DNA from: Candidatus Kaiserbacteria bacterium
Lineage (GTDB): Bacteria; Patescibacteriota; Minisyncoccia; Phycocordibacterales; Phycocordibacteraceae
Reading direction: 5' to 3'
DNA length: 64,000 bases
Assembly: GCA_026396675.1 (NCBI GenBank)
Contig: JAPLWI010000008.1
Span: 42,883 to 106,882 of the forward strand
Shown here: in pieces, positions 9,575 through 60,652 of the stretch
Layout: every line of letters begins with the position of its first letter
Position numbering within the stretch: position 1 is the stretch's first letter
Notes under the pieces: generated by a model
Seen by the model: the letters and a program-made list of their open reading frames with translations, nothing else
Told to the model about the DNA's origin: nothing
Databases searched by the model: none
Program-made: the position numbers and the translations under genes

Positions 9575-10231
9575 CTACAGTATATCCTTATATTTCTCCT
9601 TTCCAGCATCTACCCTCTTTTTTTGCTCATATTCTTCTTTCCTCTTTTCCTCTTCTTCTCCCTTTTTTCTTTCTTGCATCTCTTTATATTTTGGACTTTC
9701 TTCCCATTCTTTCTTTTTCTTTTCTTCTTCTTCCTCTCTTCTCTTCTCCTCTTCTTCTGCACGAATTTCTTTATCAGCTTCCTCTTCAAAAGAATTAAAA
9801 ATACCGCCGTCCTGAAGATTTGCTACATCTCGATATTTATTAAACAACTCAATAGCAAGTTCGTCATCGATTTGTTCCCCGTCAATTTCTCCATGTGCTT
9901 TATATTTTGACCAGTCGTGTTTTGCCTGTTGATCAAGTTCGATATAAATTTGATGTTCGCCTATCTTACCTTCCAACACTCCATTATTGCCAGTTTGAAA
10001 TTCTTCATCATAAAGTCTTTGTAAATCTTTTTTTGTTATATCTTTTTTGATATTACTTGCAATTCTCAAATCAAATTTACCTTCCTTTAAATCTCTAAAT
10101 AATTCTCTCCCGATATTTTCTATCGCCTTTTCTCTCATACTAGACATTTTTTCTTCTTTTTTGTTCATCATTCCCTTGGCTTCATTTAACTCTTTCGTAG
10201 ATGGGCGATATTGTTCTGGTGATTTTGTCAT
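9575..10231 (-). CDS. hypothetical protein with an extreme Glu/Lys-rich C-terminal tail (218 aa)
   Basis: The C-terminal tail reads …EEEADKEIRAEEEEKRREEEEEKKKKEWEESPKYKEMQERKKGEEEEKRKEEYEQKKR…. The coding strand is a ~200-nt purine tract, so the plus strand shows a pyrimidine tract. Confidence 0.45.
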   Translation of the reverse strand: MTKSPEQYRPSTKELNEAKGMMNKKEEKMSSMREKAIENIGRELFRDLKEGKFDLRIASNIKKDITKKDLQRLYDEEFQTGNNGVLEGKIGEHQIYIELDQQAKHDWSKYKAHGEIDGEQIDDELAIELFNKYRDVANLQDGGIFNSFEEEADKEIRAEEEEKRREEEEEKKKKEWEESPKYKEMQERKKGEEEEKRKEEYEQKKRVDAGKEKYKDIL

Positions 10232-12508: not shown

Positions 12509-12958
12509 ATGAAATCGAGATTGAAATCTGAGTTAAAATGGCAAGCTTTGTGGATTATTGTTATAACACTTCTTTTTCAGGTAATAACGGTGGCGGCAAT
12601 ATATCTCTTCGCAACACCAACAAATTTGGACAAGATATTGATTATCGCTATTTTTGTGGGAGTCTTAATCTCAGTTGTATGTGCTATAGGCAGAACAGTG
12701 CCTCATATCCCAGTAATTTTGTGGATGTCGGCACTTTTGGTGGGAATTTACATTATCTCGTCATTGATAAAAAATGCTGACGTCCAGAACATACCGGGGA
12801 TTCTTGCTTCAGCAATACTTTCCGCGATGATCTGTTCTGTCTTAGATGCACGCAACCTGGTAGGTTGTAGAGATATTGGCAACTTGTTGTTGTTTTTTAT
12901 CATCTTAGTAGCACCGCAGATCTGCATAGCTATTATCGCGGCAATTCTCATTTTCTGA
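12509..12958 (+). CDS. hypothetical polytopic membrane protein (149 aa)
   Basis: SD GGAGGTGA is upstream. The protein has four or five hydrophobic helices and is followed by a terminator. Confidence 0.45.
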   Translation: MKSRLKSELKWQALWIIVITLLFQVITVAAIYLFATPTNLDKILIIAIFVGVLISVVCAIGRTVPHIPVILWMSALLVGIYIISSLIKNADVQNIPGILASAILSAMICSVLDARNLVGCRDIGNLLLFFIILVAPQICIAIIAAILIF

Positions 12959-33285: not shown

Positions 33286-33690
33286 CTAAACAGCGTAAGT
33301 AGTTCGTGCTGCAAAAAAGTCAGACACAGAGAGTATGCTTCTCATTCTTGCTGCTTGATATGTAATGAATAACACAGGCAAAGTAAATAACATGCTTCTA
33401 ATCGGATACACGATGAAGGAAAGAGCAAGGCCTACTCCTCTTGGGTTTCTTTTAATAAAAGATTTCGCATTTTCAATTGCAAATCCATAAATCTTTTTGT
33501 TTTTTCCTATACGAACTAAAACTCCGTCTTCGACAGGAACATAGAAACTGCCCTTTGGAAAAGATTCCCCCATGAGAACCATGTCTGCCCTACGATTATA
33601 GGAAACTGACCATGCATCACTCTTAATCCGCCTATCCAAATTAGGATTAGCTAGCATTATTTCCTTTAGTTCATTTAGGTTTTGTTCCAT
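33286..33690 (-). CDS. DUF2283-like small protein (putative antitoxin-like partner), with an atypical hydrophobic C-terminal extension
   Basis: SVSYNRRADMVLMGESFPKGSFYVPVEDGVLVRIGKNKKIYGFAIENAKSF matches the DUF2283 pattern (Y-D/N-x-x-AD … D … G-[IV]-x-G-[IF]-E-I-x-x-A). It overlaps the upstream ORF by 16 nt. Confidence 0.45.
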   Translation of the reverse strand: MEQNLNELKEIMLANPNLDRRIKSDAWSVSYNRRADMVLMGESFPKGSFYVPVEDGVLVRIGKNKKIYGFAIENAKSFIKRNPRGVGLALSFIVYPIRSMLFTLPVLFITYQAARMRSILSVSDFFAARTTYAV

Positions 33691-34070
33691 ATAGTTTCTT
33701 CTCCTTCTGGGAAAAATGCCGTGAAATAAGCAGTCAACACTCTTATCTTACCATACCATGTATGTTCTAGCACAACCTTCATATGTTGATTCGAGTAATC
33801 TTTATCTCCAGAAAACCAAGCATAATAACACTTTCTTTTATCCTCATTCCTATCTTGACGCACTTCATTTGGGTTTTCAATTGCTTCCCTTACCGTCTTA
33901 AAATGTGTCTCTATTTCTAAATGTCCAGTGTGATTCTTCTTTCCATCTCTCACCGCTAAATAGTCCTCTTCAAACCATACTACTGGTTCGTGATTCATTC
34001 CCTCAACAAATCTATGCAATATCTTCCACGAAAGCATGCTTTGAAAATAGCACGCTACTACTTTTTTCAA
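33675..34070 (-). CDS. small hypothetical protein (131 aa), possible DUF4258-type toxin-like partner of the DUF2283 gene
   Basis: Its gene order and overlap with the DUF2283-like ORF are typical of such pairs. Weak His/Tyr-containing motifs (…HTGHLEIETHF…KIRVLTAYF) are present. The family assignment is tentative. Confidence 0.35.
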   Translation of the reverse strand: MKKVVACYFQSMLSWKILHRFVEGMNHEPVVWFEEDYLAVRDGKKNHTGHLEIETHFKTVREAIENPNEVRQDRNEDKRKCYYAWFSGDKDYSNQHMKVVLEHTWYGKIRVLTAYFTAFFPEGEETIWNKT

Positions 34071-51360: not shown

Positions 51361-52260
51361 ATGGAAGCAGAACCTGCAAAACGACAATTTTTGGAATACA
51401 TAGAGATTGAACGCGGGCGCGCGGTGAAAACAATTGAAAATTATGACCAGTATCTTACGCGCTACTTCATGCAGATGAACATAAAGAGTGTCGGTGATAT
51501 CAGTGAGCAGAATATCCGCGAATTCCGTCTCTGGTTAAATCGCCAGCCCGGCACTGGCAACGGTTCGATGAAACGCCGCACGCAGAATTACTATATGATC
51601 GCGCTCCGCGCGTTCTTAAAGTTTCTGCGTAAACGAGGAATTGAATGTATCTCGCCAGAACGCATAGAACTAGCCAAACTCCCTGAGCGGGAGCTCGATC
51701 TTATCTCACCCGCTGAACTTCAGCGGCTTCTCGCGTCGGCAGACGGCGCCGAAGAACGCGGTCTCCGCGATAAAGCGATACTTGAACTTTTTTTCTCCAC
51801 AGGTCTTCGTGTTTCGGAACTCTGTGCGCTTGATTGTGACCTTGATCTCACCCAAGATTCTTTTTCTGTGCGCGGCAAGGGCGAAAAAGTGCGAGTCGTC
51901 TTCCTCTCCCCCGCTGCTAAGAGTGCTGTCGCCGCATATCTCAAAGCGCGAAAGGATATGGCGGAGGCGCTTTTTGTAAATATTAGAAGCGATAAAGCGA
52001 TTCCGACTCGTCTAACACCACGCTCGGTAGAGCGCATCATAAAAAAATATGCAATGAAAGCCGGCATCACAAAAAAAATGACCCCGCACGTCCTCCGCCA
52101 CGTCTTCGCCACCGATTTACTCAACAACGGCGCCGACATTCGTTCCGTCCAACAACTCCTCGGCCACGCTTCAATCAACACAACGCAGATTTACACGCAC
52201 ATAACGGACTCTCATTTGCGAGAAATCCACAAAAAATATCACAATAAAAACAGTAGTTGA
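51361..52260 (+). CDS. xerC: tyrosine recombinase XerC/XerD family
   Basis: The N-terminal SAM-like domain is followed by a catalytic domain with …HVLRHVFATDLLNNGADIRSVQQLLGHASINTTQIYTHITDSHL… (R..H..R..Y catalytic residues). Confidence 0.85.
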   Translation: MEAEPAKRQFLEYIEIERGRAVKTIENYDQYLTRYFMQMNIKSVGDISEQNIREFRLWLNRQPGTGNGSMKRRTQNYYMIALRAFLKFLRKRGIECISPERIELAKLPERELDLISPAELQRLLASADGAEERGLRDKAILELFFSTGLRVSELCALDCDLDLTQDSFSVRGKGEKVRVVFLSPAAKSAVAAYLKARKDMAEALFVNIRSDKAIPTRLTPRSVERIIKKYAMKAGITKKMTPHVLRHVFATDLLNNGADIRSVQQLLGHASINTTQIYTHITDSHLREIHKKYHNKNSS

Positions 52261-52262
52261 TT

Positions 52263-53291
52263 CTATTTTCCGACCCTTTCAACCATAAACTTTACCGCAT
52301 CATCCATATTTATCGGTTGAATTTCTATGTGCGGATATTTTTCTTTAAACACTCTAAATATTTCATCAGAAAAAGCTTGCCCGATCATGGGCACATTATC
52401 AAAATCCAAAATTATGGAGTCAAATTTATCCAAACCATCAAGAATTCTTCGAGCTTGAGAACGGGATATATGTACACCATCTCCAGAAGTATAGAGTTTT
52501 ACCTTAATTTCAGTTTTGTTGAATGCAAAATCTGTGCCCACGCTGAATTCCCTGAAGAGGGCACTCAAGTGCCTGTTAGATTTTACATCGATTGTAAATA
52601 CGACTCTTGTTCCTCTTTTTAATGCAGGACGTTTTTTGTAGAACAGTTCGCGAGTTTTGTTATTAATCACTAGGATATATCCATAACTCTCAAGAGTGAA
52701 AACATCCCCTGCTTTGGATGTAAAGAAGATTCCTTGGCCGGAATGTGATTTTGGCATTGTTGTCGTCTTACCTTTCAGGAGATCCTGCATGGCTTCAATC
52801 TCTGTCCTCAACTTTTTTTCGCGCATAACATTTCTAAACACACCGATTCCAAAATCGTTAACAATAAAATTTAACTTGCGATTTTGAACCGACATCTCCA
52901 CTTCAATGTATTTAGACTTAGAGTGTTCAATAGCGTTATTCACCATTTCAGAGAATGAGTAGTTCAAGATGCTTTTGATGTTTTCTGGAAGCAGTCCAAT
53001 GGGAGGATATTGCGCCAGAATATCTGCATAGATTTCATGTTCCTGCAATTTATAATTCTTGATTCGCTTGCTTATTTTTGTAGGAAAAGATCCATTTTCA
53101 TTTACCGATTCGGACAAAAGATAGTAAGCCGCACTTGTCGATCCAACTTTAATAAGCTTGCCTTTCGCAACAAGATCGTTGATCAGCACTACTGCGTATT
53201 GCCTAGAAACCCTAAATAAAGCAACAACATCGCTACTTCTGAGCTTCTTTTTGATTCTTGCTATTTTTACTATCTCCAGTTCTCTATCCAT
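52263..53291 (-). CDS. wHTH + GHKL (HATPase_c) ATPase + C-terminal STAS-like (DUF4325-type) domain protein, 342 aa
   Basis: The N-terminal winged helix is …VVALFRVSRQYAVVLINDLVAKGKLIKVG…. The N-box is EMVNNAIEHS, the G1 box NDFGIGV and the G2 box SGQGIF. The C-terminal …SIILDFDNVPMIGQAFSDEIFRVF… is DUF4325/STAS-like. Confidence 0.5.
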   Translation of the reverse strand: MDRELEIVKIARIKKKLRSSDVVALFRVSRQYAVVLINDLVAKGKLIKVGSTSAAYYLLSESVNENGSFPTKISKRIKNYKLQEHEIYADILAQYPPIGLLPENIKSILNYSFSEMVNNAIEHSKSKYIEVEMSVQNRKLNFIVNDFGIGVFRNVMREKKLRTEIEAMQDLLKGKTTTMPKSHSGQGIFFTSKAGDVFTLESYGYILVINNKTRELFYKKRPALKRGTRVVFTIDVKSNRHLSALFREFSVGTDFAFNKTEIKVKLYTSGDGVHISRSQARRILDGLDKFDSIILDFDNVPMIGQAFSDEIFRVFKEKYPHIEIQPINMDDAVKFMVERVGK

Positions 53292-53347
53292 ACCACTATG
53301 ATATTCCAGTGTTTATTGGTTGTCAACCACTTTTAAATTCATTGTAA

Positions 53348-53434
53348 ACTGATTGTAAACAACTCTACACTCACATCACCGACGCGCACCTGCGCGAGGT
53401 GCATAAGAAATATCACTCAAACGGGAGTCAGTAA
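53348..53434 (+). pseudogene. relic of a tyrosine-recombinase 3' end (last ~24 codons, including the catalytic Tyr) from a second, diverged Xer-like gene
   Basis: Frame-2 translation reads TDCKQLYTHITDAHLREVHKKYHSNGSQ*, against the XerC C-terminus …TQIYTHITDSHLREIHKKYHNKNSS*. It is preceded by an in-frame stop at 53345 and the tandem repeat ATTGTAAAC-TG-ATTGTAAAC (53341-53360). No upstream remainder of the gene is present. Confidence 0.55.
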
Positions 53435-54369
53435 TGTTTTAAAGCCAATTTAATTTTCGGATTGTTATACCAGTCTTTATCTTCAAAATACGCATCTGGC
53501 CCATCCTTTATAATTTTTTCCGTTGCTTTCCTCCCATCCTCAATTCCACTTGAAAAAAGACTGTAGGCCATAAAGCGATTTTTTCTAACAATTGCCTCTA
53601 CCACATCTTTATCTTCCGCAAGATTTGAACGCTCTGCCAGATTTCTTAAGTAGCTATATCCACCAGAATCGTGATCATATTCGTCATTAATTGGCATAGA
53701 ATTTATTATTTCAAGCACTATGTTTTTAGAATAAACCTTGCCTCTATCATATGCCAACAGAGGAGATAAGGCACCAGGATTGCCCATTCCTTTCACATAG
53801 CGCAAAATCATTGCGTCATTATTCAGAAAATCAATTGCCTTATCATCACGCATAGTTTGAAACATAAGGTTATAATCCCCTGCCTTTCCTCCTAATTTTT
53901 TAAACCGAGCAATATAATCATCCATCTTCTCTTCCGGAGACTTTTCGCCTTGTTCCTTGTTTTCTGCTACTACTGGTTCTTCCTTATCAACCGTCATTGA
54001 CTCAGTTTTTTCCATTGCTGGAGGTTGCACATTCCCACCCTTAAGCTTTTCCAAAATTTCTGCTGCTTCTTTTTGGGACTTTTCTGCGTCCAATTTCGCC
54101 TGCTCGGCAAGTGCCGCTTCCCTGCCTGCTTTTTCTTCTGCGGCTTTTGCTTCGTCAATCCCTTTATTGATTTCCAATGCTTCTTCTTGAGCATTGCCCA
54201 TCATTTCAACTTTTGCCGTTTCCATACTTTTTGCCTCTTGTGCTAGTTCTGCAACCTTTCCATAATCCCCTGCCGCAACAGCATCGGTAAGTTCCTGTTT
54301 CTTTTGTGCAATACCTGCTTCATTTTCATCAAAGACCTCTCGCGAGCTTGTTGGATTTTCGTTGGACAT
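53428..54369 (-). CDS. hypothetical protein: N-terminal Ala/Glu/Lys-rich coiled coil plus a C-terminal globular domain (314 aa from MSNENPTSS)
   Basis: No recognisable family. The ORF track starts 63 nt upstream, at 54432. Confidence 0.4.
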   Translation of the reverse strand: MSNENPTSSREVFDENEAGIAQKKQELTDAVAAGDYGKVAELAQEAKSMETAKVEMMGNAQEEALEINKGIDEAKAAEEKAGREAALAEQAKLDAEKSQKEAAEILEKLKGGNVQPPAMEKTESMTVDKEEPVVAENKEQGEKSPEEKMDDYIARFKKLGGKAGDYNLMFQTMRDDKAIDFLNNDAMILRYVKGMGNPGALSPLLAYDRGKVYSKNIVLEIINSMPINDEYDHDSGGYSYLRNLAERSNLAEDKDVVEAIVRKNRFMAYSLFSSGIEDGRKATEKIIKDGPDAYFEDKDWYNNPKIKLALKHY

Positions 54370-54450: not shown

Positions 54451-54735
54451 TTATTCGCCGAACAGTTCTGGGTGCGTACCAATTTCAGAGATAGTAACAA
54501 TCCCCGCTTCATCATTGCGTTTGTATATCAATAACAAGTTAAATCCCAAGTGACACTCTCTAAAACTCGCGAATTCCCCATGAAGTTGGTGGTCTTTAAA
54601 CCTCTCTGGAAGCGGATTCCCTTGCTCAAGACAATTAAGGACTGAATTGAAAACAGAAGAATTGAATGTGCCAGAATACCTTAATTTCTTTAAACGCCTT
54701 CGCGCCGAGATAGAAAGCGATACAGAATAGATCAT
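54451..54735 (-). CDS. yafQ: type II toxin, RelE/YafQ family mRNA interferase
   Basis: …KDHQLHGEFASFRECHLGFNLLLIYKRNDEAGIVTISEIGTHPELF follows the YafQ pattern (H.L.G…rEcHi…LLiY…vtl.ri.gtHselF). It overlaps the upstream dinJ-like gene by 4 nt. Confidence 0.75.
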   Translation of the reverse strand: MIYSVSLSISARRRLKKLRYSGTFNSSVFNSVLNCLEQGNPLPERFKDHQLHGEFASFRECHLGFNLLLIYKRNDEAGIVTISEIGTHPELFGE

Positions 54736-55016
54736 TGGAAGAATTCTTTCATTATCTCCTTCGCGGTATATCGTTTACCATGCTTCTCCGCGTATTCCGT
54801 TTCGCGAATAACGCGTGCTTCAAACTCGGGCGTGAAGCCATTTATTGTGCGTGGCGTAAACGGCATCGCCTTGTCTTGGACAACGCGAGAAAGGTACATA
54901 TTGATACCGGTCGAGAGATCGAATCCCATCTGCTTGAATACGCGCTGTGCGGCGAGTTTCGTCGCTTTGTCGGTCCGCACGTTCACCACTGCTTTTGCGA
55001 TTGTTTTGGTAGCCAT
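54732..55016 (-). CDS. dinJ: type II antitoxin, RelB/DinJ family, with a C-terminal extension (start taken at MATKTIAK)
   Basis: MATKTIAKAVVNVRTDKATKLAAQRVFKQMGFDLSTGINMYLSRVVQDKAMPF matches DinJ-family antitoxins. An extra ~40 aa follows. Confidence 0.7.
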   Translation of the reverse strand: MATKTIAKAVVNVRTDKATKLAAQRVFKQMGFDLSTGINMYLSRVVQDKAMPFTPRTINGFTPEFEARVIRETEYAEKHGKRYTAKEIMKEFFQ

Positions 55017-57758: not shown

Positions 57759-57830
57759 GCCCCGATGGTGAAATGGATATCACGACTGACTTCGGATCAG
57801 TTATTCTGGGTTCGAATCCTGGTCGGGGCA
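57759..57830 (+). tRNA. tRNA-Arg (anticodon TCG)
   Basis: The acceptor stem is GCCCCGA/TCGGGGC and the D-stem GTGA/TCAC. The anticodon arm ACTGA-CTTCGGA-TCAGT gives anticodon UCG. The T-arm is CTGGG-TTCGAAT-CCTGG, with discriminator A and no encoded CCA. Confidence 0.8.
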
Positions 57831-57876
57831 CAAACTGGTAAACAGATGGAAGTGCGTGGTACTATGTCGCCTAGAA

Positions 57877-57950
57877 GCGGGCATGGTTCAGTGGTAGAAC
57901 GCGTCCTTGCCAAGGACGAGACGGGAGTCCGATTCTCCCTGCCCGCACCA
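57877..57950 (+). tRNA. tRNA-Gly (anticodon GCC), CCA encoded
   Basis: Read as GCGGGCA-TG-GTTC-AGTGGTA-GAAC-G-CGTCC-TTGCCAA-GGACG-AGAC-GGGAG-TCCGATT-CTCCC-TGCCCGC-A-CCA. The T-loop has C at position 55. Confidence 0.75.
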
Positions 57951-58117
57951 CTTCGTCACTAGGAAACTCGGGACTACGCGGTGCACAGCACTAGAAAATG
58001 TGATTTCAAAACGACTTTTGCTCTGTGTATAACATGGGGGATACTGGGGATAAAGGACAGGGGACTTTTGGAGAAGTCCGTGAAATAATAAGCAAGTAAG
58101 CCGTATCTATAAAAGGC

Positions 58118-58513
58118 ATGAATATTTCTTCTTTCACACGAAAAGAGGTTGGGAATCTGGGCGAGAGTGTTGCCTGCGAGTATCTTAGACGACATGGTTT
58201 TAAGATCTTGGATCGCAATATCGCACGAAAAACAGGGGAGCTAGATGTCGTCGCGAAGAAAGAAGATACGCTTCATTTCGTTGAAGTGAAGACGATTCTT
58301 GCTGACGAATTTCCTCAAACAGAGAAGGTGAAAGATGATTACGATCCTTCATTAAACTTACACGAAGCGAAAGTGCGGAAAGTTGCAAGAACTGGCGAGT
58401 GGTATGTCCTTGAGAAAAAATGGGAGGGGGAGTGGCAGGTGGATGGCTGTCTCGTGTGGCTTCGCCGGAGAGACGGAATGGCGAGGGTTTCGTATTTGCC
58501 GCAAATCGTTTAA
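58118..58513 (+). CDS. yraN: YraN / UPF0102 family endonuclease
   Basis: …LGESVACEYLRRHGFKILDRNIARKTGELDVVAKKEDTLHFVEVKT… matches the UPF0102 signature. Confidence 0.75.
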   Translation: MNISSFTRKEVGNLGESVACEYLRRHGFKILDRNIARKTGELDVVAKKEDTLHFVEVKTILADEFPQTEKVKDDYDPSLNLHEAKVRKVARTGEWYVLEKKWEGEWQVDGCLVWLRRRDGMARVSYLPQIV

Positions 58514-58571
58514 GAATGGTAATGTGAAGCGAAGCGAAAACGGGCTGTGCCCGCCGTAGCTTTAGCGAAGG

Positions 58572-58642
58572 CGGGGCGTAGTATACCGGTAGTACGCTTG
58601 CTTTGGGAGCAAGAAGACCGAGTCCAATTCTCGGCGCCCCGA
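58572..58642 (+). tRNA. tRNA-Pro (anticodon TGG), slightly atypical T-loop
   Basis: The acceptor stem is CGGGGCG/CGCCCCG and the D-stem GTA/TAC. The anticodon arm CTTGC-TTTGGGA-GCAAG gives anticodon UGG. The T-arm is CCGAG-TCCAATT-CTCGG (C at position 55), with discriminator A. Confidence 0.6.
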
Positions 58643-58645
58643 CAA

Positions 58646-59840: not shown

Positions 59841-60524
59841 ATGCATACTCTGTCTATCCGAGAGAGAGCTCTGGCGTTAAGAAAGAGCGGTTTTTCTTAT
59901 ACATACATTTCATCTAAAACGGGGCTCTCAAAAAGTACTTTGAGTGGATGGCTCACGGAAATACCCTATACTCCCAACAAAGAAACAATAGCCGCATTCG
60001 GCAAAGCAAGAGCCGCAGCCAGTGCTCGTCGAGCTGAGTTGCGGCAAAAATCAATCCAAGAAATCAGAAAAACGGCGACCAAAGACATCGGGGAAGTAAG
60101 CAAAAGAGATCTTTTTGTGTTTGGGCTAGGTCTCTATTTGGGAGAAGGGTGCAAGTCAAATGGACAGGTTCGTGTAGTAAATTCAGATCCGAGTATCATC
60201 CAAGCTGCTATTACATGGTTCAAGATGCTCGGTGTAAGAAAAGACCAAATTAAGATTCGCTTGCATTTATATCCGGATAACAACATCCGGCAATGTTTGC
60301 AATTTTGGTCTCGTACTACTAGCATTCCATTATCCCAATTCCAAAAGCCCCAGATCGACAATCGTGTCGGTAAAAAAGCGAAAAAAATGCGTAAACTTCC
60401 TTTTGGTACCGTACAACTGGTTGTTCTGAGCAGGGGACGAAAGGAATATGGGGTTCTCTTCTTCCGGAAAATTCAACTCTGGAATGAAGTGGTTCTGTCG
60501 GAAATTAGAGCGGGCGTGGTCTAA
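59841..60524 (+). CDS. HTH + LAGLIDADG-like homing-endonuclease-family protein (start taken at MHTLSIRE; the ORF track starts at 59772)
   Basis: The N-terminal HTH is SGFSYTYISSKTGLSKSTLSGWL. A single LAGLIDADG-type motif LFVFGLGLYLGEG is present. The 3' end overlaps the tRNA-Gly(TCC) gene by 15 nt. Confidence 0.45.
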   Translation: MHTLSIRERALALRKSGFSYTYISSKTGLSKSTLSGWLTEIPYTPNKETIAAFGKARAAASARRAELRQKSIQEIRKTATKDIGEVSKRDLFVFGLGLYLGEGCKSNGQVRVVNSDPSIIQAAITWFKMLGVRKDQIKIRLHLYPDNNIRQCLQFWSRTTSIPLSQFQKPQIDNRVGKKAKKMRKLPFGTVQLVVLSRGRKEYGVLFFRKIQLWNEVVLSEIRAGVV

Positions 60525-60581
60525 CGGCTATGACGGCTGCCTTCCAAGCAGTCAGCGCGGGTTCGACTCCCGCCGCCCGCA
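60510..60581 (+). tRNA. tRNA-Gly (anticodon TCC)
   Basis: The acceptor stem is GCGGGCG/CGCCCGC and the D-stem GTC/GAC. The anticodon arm GCTGC-CTTCCAA-GCAGT gives anticodon UCC. The T-arm is GCGGG-TTCGACT-CCCGC, with discriminator A. Confidence 0.75.
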
Positions 60582-60652
60582 CAAATTGATTTTTTATAAA
60601 GAAAGAGTATTCTTCCGCCAGAAGTTCAAATTGAAAGAAAGGAGGCAACAAA

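Follow-up and report, generated by a model that had tools for sequence, protein, structure and literature searches.

A stretch of 64,000 nucleotides (nt) from a Candidatus Kaiserbacteria bacterium (assembly GCA_026396675.1, contig JAPLWI010000008.1, positions 42,883 to 106,882), hereafter the window, carries a horizontally mobile single-gene cassette at window positions 52263-53360 on the minus strand. The cassette consists of phased repeats, a promoter and one open reading frame (ORF). It is inserted into the 3' end of the recombinase gene xerC, to which it has brought a replacement for the last ~23 codons, displacing the native copy to its far side. The sole gene encodes a 342-residue protein in which a winged helix-turn-helix (wHTH), a GHKL ATPase/kinase domain and a STAS-like DUF4325 domain are joined in one chain. 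The family to which it belongs is large, uncharacterised and common in bacteria of the candidate phyla radiation (CPR); what is new, as far as the sequences allow it to be read, is that a kinase/STAS system, apparently of the partner-switching kind, travels as a single-gene mobile cassette with exact boundaries. With moderate confidence, we regard the product as an autoregulated, ATP-driven, single-chain partner-switch protein travelling on a selfish mobile cassette.

Insertion of the cassette into the 3' end of xerC

A preliminary description of this DNA had noted a recombinase relic between two genes, and the relic is real: 53360-53434 (+) translates to QLYTHITDAHLREVHKKYHSNGSQ followed by a stop, an in-frame copy of the XerC C-terminus. 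Together with the present end of xerC it forms a diverged direct duplication of 69 nt (at the DNA level, 75% identity over 51 nt), the two copies lying 1174 nt apart. The empty site is preserved in a genome of the same genus (L084; core proteins 83-94% identical to those of the window genome), which has the order exoIII / relB / yafQ / homolog of the window's 313-residue neighbour / xerC, the last two directly convergent and with no cassette between them. When the three sequences are aligned, the relic departs from the empty-site allele by 3 mismatches in 41 nt, and the copy inside xerC differs at 9 of the 41 positions, is AT-rich like the insert and reverts to native sequence, that is, has its crossover, at ~52186-52202. 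The first 19 codons of the two copies show 10 synonymous-only codon differences and 3 conservative replacements. This fits divergence of both copies within functional xerC genes and not decay in place, and means that the cassette came with an xerC 3' end from another lineage. The insert of ~1.16 kb has a GC content of 0.36-0.39 compared with 0.47-0.52 around it, and for flanking repeats the 342-residue gene scores highest in the window, where it also ranks among the three genes lowest in GC.

Two other explanations for this arrangement were considered and rejected. The xerC gene is not itself part of the element, given that its synteny with rpsO/NYN holds in three genomes, one of which has the empty site. 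The repeats are not an assembly artefact, as the copies are 75-84% identical and the same junction is found in independent assemblies (L083 and L112). The stop codons of the 342-residue ORF and of the convergent xerC are 2 nt apart; as a family feature such a tail-to-tail junction with a convergent gene was also discarded (9/32 versus 29/110 in controls).

On the minus strand the mobile unit begins at 53360 with the first upstream repeat and ends at 52263 with the stop codon, a length of 1.1 kb. For copies at three sites (xerC, clpP and the locus L001), the limits of homology are exactly the first repeat and the stop codon, and outside them identity is noise. The core genes of these cassette-carrying genomes are 83-96% identical and the cassette sits at different loci; the contig with the empty site has a copy of its own, 82% identical and ~15 kb off, adjoining clpP (L081). 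Family-wide, 13 of 71 testable loci have the gene bracketed by long direct repeats specific to the locus, versus 3 of 193 control genes (Fisher p = 4e-6, ~11-fold), and these repeats are 25-160 nt long, 75-97% identical and 1117-1370 nt apart.

The target sites also receive other cargo. L112:4440-5613 (JGI contig Ga0181520_10004889) retains this xerC relic along with the first ~65 nt of the repeat array, and in place of the wHTH-GHKL-STAS ORF it encodes a SocA/Panacea-domain protein (181 residues, E 7e-15) and a weak RelE-like protein (127 residues). This swap identifies the xerC 3' end as a cassette-exchange hot spot. At L013:5729-8530, a family cassette and a Fic/DOC cassette are kept apart by three diverged copies (78-84% identical) of an NAD-dependent dehydratase-like gene's 3' end, a pattern indicating that two single-gene cassettes accreted in tandem at one target.

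Insertion with long target duplication has been described for small selfish restriction-modification (R-M) gene units without a mobility gene (Furuta, Abe & Kobayashi, NAR 2010, PMC2853133). The defining features were an insert of <20 kb without mobility genes, a duplication of >30 bp and repeats for which an insert-free relative has one aligning copy; the R-M units often overlap the 3' end of a neighbouring gene, deviate in GC content and occur in hosts that are likely to be naturally transformable (PMC2853133). The present ~1.16-kb insert has one non-mobility gene and a 69-nt repeat, and the empty-site sequence aligns across both copies. It differs from the R-M units in carrying one regulator/kinase-like gene, in the greater divergence of the repeats (75-97%), of which one copy is apparently a foreign allele, and in its exact boundaries, from the first operator repeat to the stop codon.

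Table 1 Features of the cassette and its surroundings, in window coordinates
Feature	Position	Strand	Remark
342-residue ORF, wHTH-GHKL ATPase/kinase-STAS-like (DUF4325)	52263-53291	-	Sole cassette gene
wHTH, residues 1-62	53106-53291	-	N-terminal domain
GHKL (Bergerat-fold) domain, SpoIIAB/RsbW class, residues ~73-250	52542-53075	-	Invariant motifs and fold
STAS-like DUF4325 domain, residues ~259-342	52266-52517	-	Pfam and predicted topology
Sigma-70-type promoter, TTGACA-17-TATCAT	53298-53326	-	Cassette's own; 11/12 matches
Repeat 1, GTTTACAAT	53352-53360	-	9 nt; left end of mobile unit
Repeat 2, GTTTACAAT	53341-53349	-	9 nt
Repeat 3, GTTGACAAC	53319-53327	-	9 nt; contains the -35 element
xerC, XerC/D-type tyrosine recombinase, 299 residues	51361-52260	+	Insertion target, outside cassette
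Present xerC 3' end, other copy of the 69-nt duplication	52192-52260	+	AT-rich foreign allele from ~52203
Relic of native xerC 3' end, ~23 codons and stop	53366-53434	+	GC-rich, near-identical to empty-site allele
313-residue hypothetical protein, AEK-rich coiled-coil N-terminus, variable C-terminus	53428-54369	-	Native neighbour
yafQ	54451-54735	-	Type II toxin-antitoxin pair with dinJ; native synteny, outside cassette
dinJ	54732-55016	-	Type II toxin-antitoxin pair with yafQ; native synteny, outside cassette

The encoded protein and its repeat array

The architecture of wHTH, RsbW-type GHKL and STAS-like domains in a single chain, proposed in the preliminary description, is supported, and all the motifs quoted there are present in the ORF. 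The recognition helix of the wHTH begins with an invariant S29-R30-Q31-Y32, and the wing bears K48, G50 and T52. Among 26 homologs, the N-box SEMVNNAIEHS (residues 114-124), the G1 box VNDFGIGV (residues 144-151), the G2 box HSGQGIFFTS (residues 183-192) and the STAS-like segment SIILDFDNVPMIGQAFSDEIF (residues 291-311) are invariant or nearly so, the strictly invariant GHKL residues being E115 and N119 in the N-box, D146-x-G-x-G in G1 and G185-x-G187 in G2. The protein has the Bergerat fold with N-box, G1 and G2 by which the GHKL/HATPase_c superfamily is recognised, and its best structural matches are SpoIIAB, RsbW, UsfX and Rv1364c. Pfam DUF4325 (PF14213) covers residues 279-334 with positions 1-64 of the 64 in its hidden Markov model (HMM), at 53.5 bits versus a cut-off of 23 (E 2e-14). 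The AlphaFold2 (AF2) model of the protein (predicted local distance difference test, pLDDT, 80; predicted template modelling score, pTM, 0.70) gives the C-terminal domain a STAS topology, beta-beta-alpha-beta-alpha-beta-alpha. Less was gained from other searches: a PDB sequence-profile search was uninformative save for a weak wHTH match to 3lmm, fold matches in BFVD were at domain level only, a single PHROGs family of unknown function matched the GHKL part only, and plasmid and phage tblastn returned nothing informative.

The phospho-serine of STAS proteins lies at the N-terminus of helix alpha2, and the face at the N-terminus of alpha1 is the one that contacts the kinase in the SpoIIAA-SpoIIAB complex. 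Here, alpha1 opens with an invariant S276-R-S-Q-A-[KR]-R, and alpha2, which begins at residue 305 in the AF2 model, with an invariant G304-Q-A-F-x-D-E. On the predicted structure, the canonical phospho-serine position is therefore replaced by an invariant Gly-Gln (304-305), and no conserved Ser or Thr is found anywhere in residues 297-312, in close homologs or in those 30-45% identical. Given that hhalign of the C-terminal domain against SpoIIAA/RsbV produced no significant alignment, the register of the phospho-site depends on the predicted topology and on this absence of a nearby conserved Ser/Thr. With an invariant Gly-Gln and no conserved Ser/Thr nearby, a classical serine phospho-switch is unsupported; the wider idea, from the preliminary description, of a self-contained DNA-binding/partner-switching module is supported.

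The -10 element of the cassette's promoter ends 6 nt ahead of the ATG, and with so short a distance the transcript of the 342-residue gene is probably leaderless. The array at 53319-53360 (-) overlaps the promoter and consists of three direct, helically phased copies of GTTKACAAY; no other cluster of this motif occurs within the 64-kb window. In the stretch of 75-150 nt immediately upstream, nearly all family genes have 3-7 direct copies of a 9-nt motif, GTT(T/G)ACAA(T/C) in most lineages, and the spacing of successive copies peaks at 11-12, 21-22 and 32-34 nt, corresponding to one helix face. At least three TTKACAW copies are present upstream of 48/78 family loci versus 1/582 other genes. The motif also follows the recognition helix, as at least two TTKACAA copies precede 40 of the 43 loci in which this helix starts with S-R-Q-[YF] and 13 of the 35 in which it does not (p = 1e-7, uncorrected for phylogeny), and lineages with other helix starts have other repeats (ACATAG, GTCATA, CCTTACAA, TAACACTA and TTTACAGT). 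Distant prophage-borne members likewise have upstream repeats of the TTKAC type. These patterns are strong indirect evidence that the wHTH would bind its own promoter array, for which the repeats are the putative operator.

Distribution of the family and the neighbouring genes

A word-indexed search recovered >6000 relatives, essentially all of 335-360 residues and identical architecture. The majority are annotated merely as 'DUF4325 domain-containing protein', and several are labelled 'anti-sigma regulatory factor (Ser/Thr protein kinase)' by the Joint Genome Institute (JGI); in the searchable literature DUF4325 is mentioned by three papers, and no function has been demonstrated for it there. 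An exhaustive profile search (E <= 1e-30) yielded 848 clusters at 50% identity, and relatives are encoded in at least 559 GTDB species genomes, mainly of Patescibacteria, with some Omnitrophota, Planctomycetota, Ignavibacteria and others as minority hosts. Across CPR lineages the identity is 50-57%. Full-length relatives, 30-43% identical, are also found on 27 IMG/VR viral contigs at moron-like positions, either inside tail modules or adjoining integrases or lysins: between tape-measure/baseplate-hub genes and downstream tail genes in L090, L091 and L094 (35% identity), next to a phage integrase in L095 and L096, and next to a chitinase-like lysin in L107. The prophage locus L111:5308-6273 has a stand-alone DUF4325 protein of 91 residues with SRSQARR and GQAFADEIFRVF motifs, directly 3' of two small ORFs that by eye resemble a HigB/HigA-type pair.

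No neighbour is conserved across 80 genome loci, and no downstream gene is conserved in these or in 27 viral loci. Among the 144 immediate neighbours 103 Pfam families are represented, of which the commonest is Fic with 4 members. Fic/DOC genes recur near the family gene in 7/80 loci (including L004, L015, L046 and L079); their promoters bear short repeat arrays of their own (for example, 3x TTGCGCGATT in L079 and 3x CTTTACAA in L046), and they may represent a second class of autoregulated cassette.

The preliminary description had treated the 342-residue gene and the coiled-coil gene for the 313-residue protein as a functional two-gene module between an integrase and a toxin-antitoxin pair. 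Both flanks, the XerC/D-type gene (51361-52260) and dinJ-yafQ (54451-55016), are confirmed, and the two genes in question are adjacent, co-oriented and of low GC, with the toxin-antitoxin pair next door. The pairing itself is nevertheless refuted by the empty site, where relB-yafQ, the 313-residue homolog and xerC stand without a cassette, and by absent co-occurrence, and the chance that a module exists is close to nil. A neighbour of the 313-residue type lies beside the family gene in 0 of 80 other loci, and in the empty-site genome the cassette is found ~15 kb away beside clpP. The neighbour has only 17 homologs versus >6000, and these share just the N-terminal ~115 residues (MSNENPT...AEK-rich coiled coil), with unrelated and highly variable C-terminal regions; the C-terminus of the window protein is common to one homolog only (P0122). 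It has no match in Pfam, NCBIfam, PADLOC or PHROG, and its gene adjoins relB-yafQ in three genomes of the genus. On the minus strand the order is dinJ, yafQ, the 313-residue gene, a 136-nt spacer and the 342-residue ORF; the coiled-coil gene, earlier called downstream, thus lies upstream (5') of its supposed partner. The xerC relic, the insertion junction, a hairpin and a separate, strong promoter with 11/12 matches stand between the two.

This hairpin (GCACCT-CGCGC-AGGTGC, 53384-53403, minus strand) is GC-rich, lies inside the xerC relic just 3' of the stop codon of the 313-residue gene and may now act as terminator of that gene; it has no T-run after it. Four tRNA genes (Arg-TCG, Gly-GCC, Pro-TGG and Gly-TCC; 57759-58643 and 60510-60582, plus strand) are located a few kb from the cassette and are uninvolved in the insertion. 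Elsewhere in the window, three genes are also markedly low in GC (0.34-0.39 versus ~0.47-0.50 for the window), at 9575-10231 (-), 33286-34070 (-) and 12509-12958 (+); they could be further acquired cassettes, and no flanking repeats were detected around them.

Proposed working and rival explanations

The closest characterised systems are CapK/CapS and VapK/VapS/VapC, which are tied to mobile or immune loci (Chambers et al., EMBO J 2026, PMC13373217). CapK is an HTH-STAS-GHKL protein in one chain that becomes active when single-stranded DNA is bound between its STAS and GHKL domains, and CapS is a STAS-wHTH autorepressor that binds its own promoter; capK is always immediately followed by capS and usually then by an immune operon (PMC13373217). 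VapK/VapS/VapC defends against phage, and the STAS proteins are antitoxin-like partners, as in VapS-VapC (PMC13373217). The 342-residue protein has the same three blocks, a (w)HTH, an anti-sigma-type GHKL kinase and a STAS domain, and by analogy would work like these systems, of which it is not a member. The domain order differs from that of CapK, being wHTH (1-62), GHKL (73-250) and STAS-like (259-342), and there is one gene, with no capS partner and no downstream immune operon or VapC. The conserved serine on STAS alpha2 gives way to the invariant Gly-Gln, the operator has 3-7 direct repeats phased by ~11 nt in place of palindromes, no sequence-level match to the solved CapS and VapS chains was found, and the hosts are mostly Patescibacteria. 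Compared with the partner-switching modules SpoIIAB-SpoIIAA and RsbW-RsbV, and with the M. tuberculosis protein Rv1364c, a fusion of RsbU, RsbW and RsbV, the family gene has neither a sigma factor or sigma operon in its vicinity nor a PP2C phosphatase, and the alpha2 N-terminus of its STAS-like domain bears no phospho-acceptor Ser. What the protein adds is a wHTH with an operator of its own and carriage on a mobile cassette. Stand-alone DUF4325 proteins are alike in the C-terminal domain, which here is fused to wHTH and GHKL.

We propose that the wHTH would bind the GTTKACAAY repeats cooperatively, head-to-tail on one DNA face, and so repress its own leaderless transcript. The GHKL domain would bind ATP and make contact, via the SRSQ/GQAFADE surface, with the STAS-like domain either of its own chain or of a neighbouring protomer, as SpoIIAB engages SpoIIAA. 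Because the canonical position is an invariant Gly-Gln, the switch would not operate through the classical serine, and ATP-dependent docking, or phosphorylation elsewhere (for example, at the invariant S276/S278), may take its place. A trigger, possibly an infection or damage signal by analogy with CapK, would shift the GHKL-STAS equilibrium, so that the protein lets go of the DNA, or the kinase/anti-sigma-like domain becomes available for phosphorylating or sequestering a host or invader target, or both. The cassette would then behave as a selfish addiction or defence module, and not as the operon partner of the 313-residue gene. The fold of the protein is evident; the switch activity is what we infer.

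Several points weigh against a single-chain partner switch on a selfish cassette. DNA binding, ATP use and GHKL-STAS contact are properties that we infer for every member of the family, and the association of helix and operator is uncorrected for phylogeny. The domains assigned earlier are detected, DUF4325 above its cut-off; for the kinase part, the Pfam HATPase_c_2 and HATPase_c scores are slightly under the curated cut-offs, with the Bergerat motifs invariant. The family has no effector domain and no conserved target gene, PADLOC-DB v2 contains no family matching the 342-residue or the 313-residue protein at E <= 1, and the remaining immediate neighbours are mostly housekeeping genes and not defence islands; the context of defence or regulatory cargo suggested by the dinJ-yafQ locus is hence not borne out as a general family feature. 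With regard to mobility, the cassette encodes no recombinase, flanking duplications are detectable in only ~18% of loci, and at the second Kaiserbacteria site (L081) a clpP 3' relic was sought and not found, nor was any duplication detectable. Metagenome contigs yielded no circular or tandem junction, in which the cassette's end would be followed after 60-90 nt by its start; this is a weak negative, given that exact matches were required.

The partner-switch explanation has a more specific version with a defined output, namely a single-chain toxin-antitoxin/abortive-infection sensor. In this version the GHKL domain would act as a toxin, either a kinase that arrests growth or anti-sigma-like, restrained by the fused STAS-like domain, the wHTH would autorepress as an antitoxin, and a phage or DNA-damage cue would release the kinase; fused systems such as CapRel, and VapS restraining VapC, are the comparators. 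Selfish-cassette behaviour, the exchange with a Panacea/RelE-like toxin-antitoxin cassette at the same site, moron positions on prophages and the recurrent, cassette-like Fic/DOC genes nearby all point to an addiction or defence role, if only tentatively. An AbiEi-type wHTH match in some homologs (PF13338, P0099), the reported coupling of DUF4325 genes to PIN.4/VapC-like genes (PMC5499597) and the phage defence by VapK-VapS-VapC (PMC13373217) are in line with such a sensor. The lack of a PADLOC match, the mostly housekeeping neighbours and a canonical STAS site without a phospho-acceptor count against it, and we consider the sensor possible, with the balance of evidence still on the other side. 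An ordinary CPR transcription factor is unlikely. Such a factor would sense ATP/energy as a one-component repressor and control a host regulon elsewhere in the genome, its apparent mobility arising incidentally from recombination in genomes that are compact and naturally transformable. It would suit the 50-57% identity across CPR lineages, the fixed length and invariant DNA-reading residues, the housekeeping neighbours and the motif copies found upstream of the next gene as well in L010, L074 and L046. However, the sole motif cluster in the 64-kb window is the gene's own, the gene is present or absent and at different loci within the same genus, its GC content marks it as foreign among the DNA around it, viral contigs carry relatives, and flanking duplications are enriched over controls.

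A classical RsbW/RsbV-type regulator, in which a GHKL anti-sigma factor phosphorylates the fused STAS antagonist and controls an alternative sigma factor, would agree with the structural matches to SpoIIAB, RsbW, UsfX and Rv1364c and with the JGI label on several homologs. We regard it as improbable, since no sigma-factor family recurs among the 144 immediate neighbours, and an embedding in sigma-factor operons, which would have spoken for it, is absent there. Moreover, the phospho-serine is an invariant Gly-Gln, with no conserved Ser/Thr in the beta3-alpha2 loop or helix start, and the wHTH and operator array have no counterpart in RsbW systems. An even slimmer chance is given to a minimal autonomous mobile element, whose own protein, acting on iteron-like end repeats, would direct excision, integration or replication, with the wHTH in end recognition and the GHKL ATPase as a DNA-handling motor. 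If true, this would constitute a new class of mobility protein without a recombinase or transposase fold, and would explain the exact repeat-to-stop boundaries and the long, allele-carrying target duplications.

Kinase/STAS pairs have only recently been shown to control immune operons and a VapC toxin, and the present family would be their one-polypeptide, one-gene form. It is widespread (848 clusters) in the poorly understood Patescibacteria/CPR and is also found on prophages. Given that promoter, operator and protein are contained in one exactly bounded 1.1-kb unit, the system is unusually tractable. The insertion pattern documents cassette exchange at the 3' end of a housekeeping gene, through end replacement, tandem accretion with Fic and a swap with a toxin-antitoxin cassette, and widens insertion with long target duplication, previously described for R-M systems, to further kinds of selfish cargo in CPR genomes.

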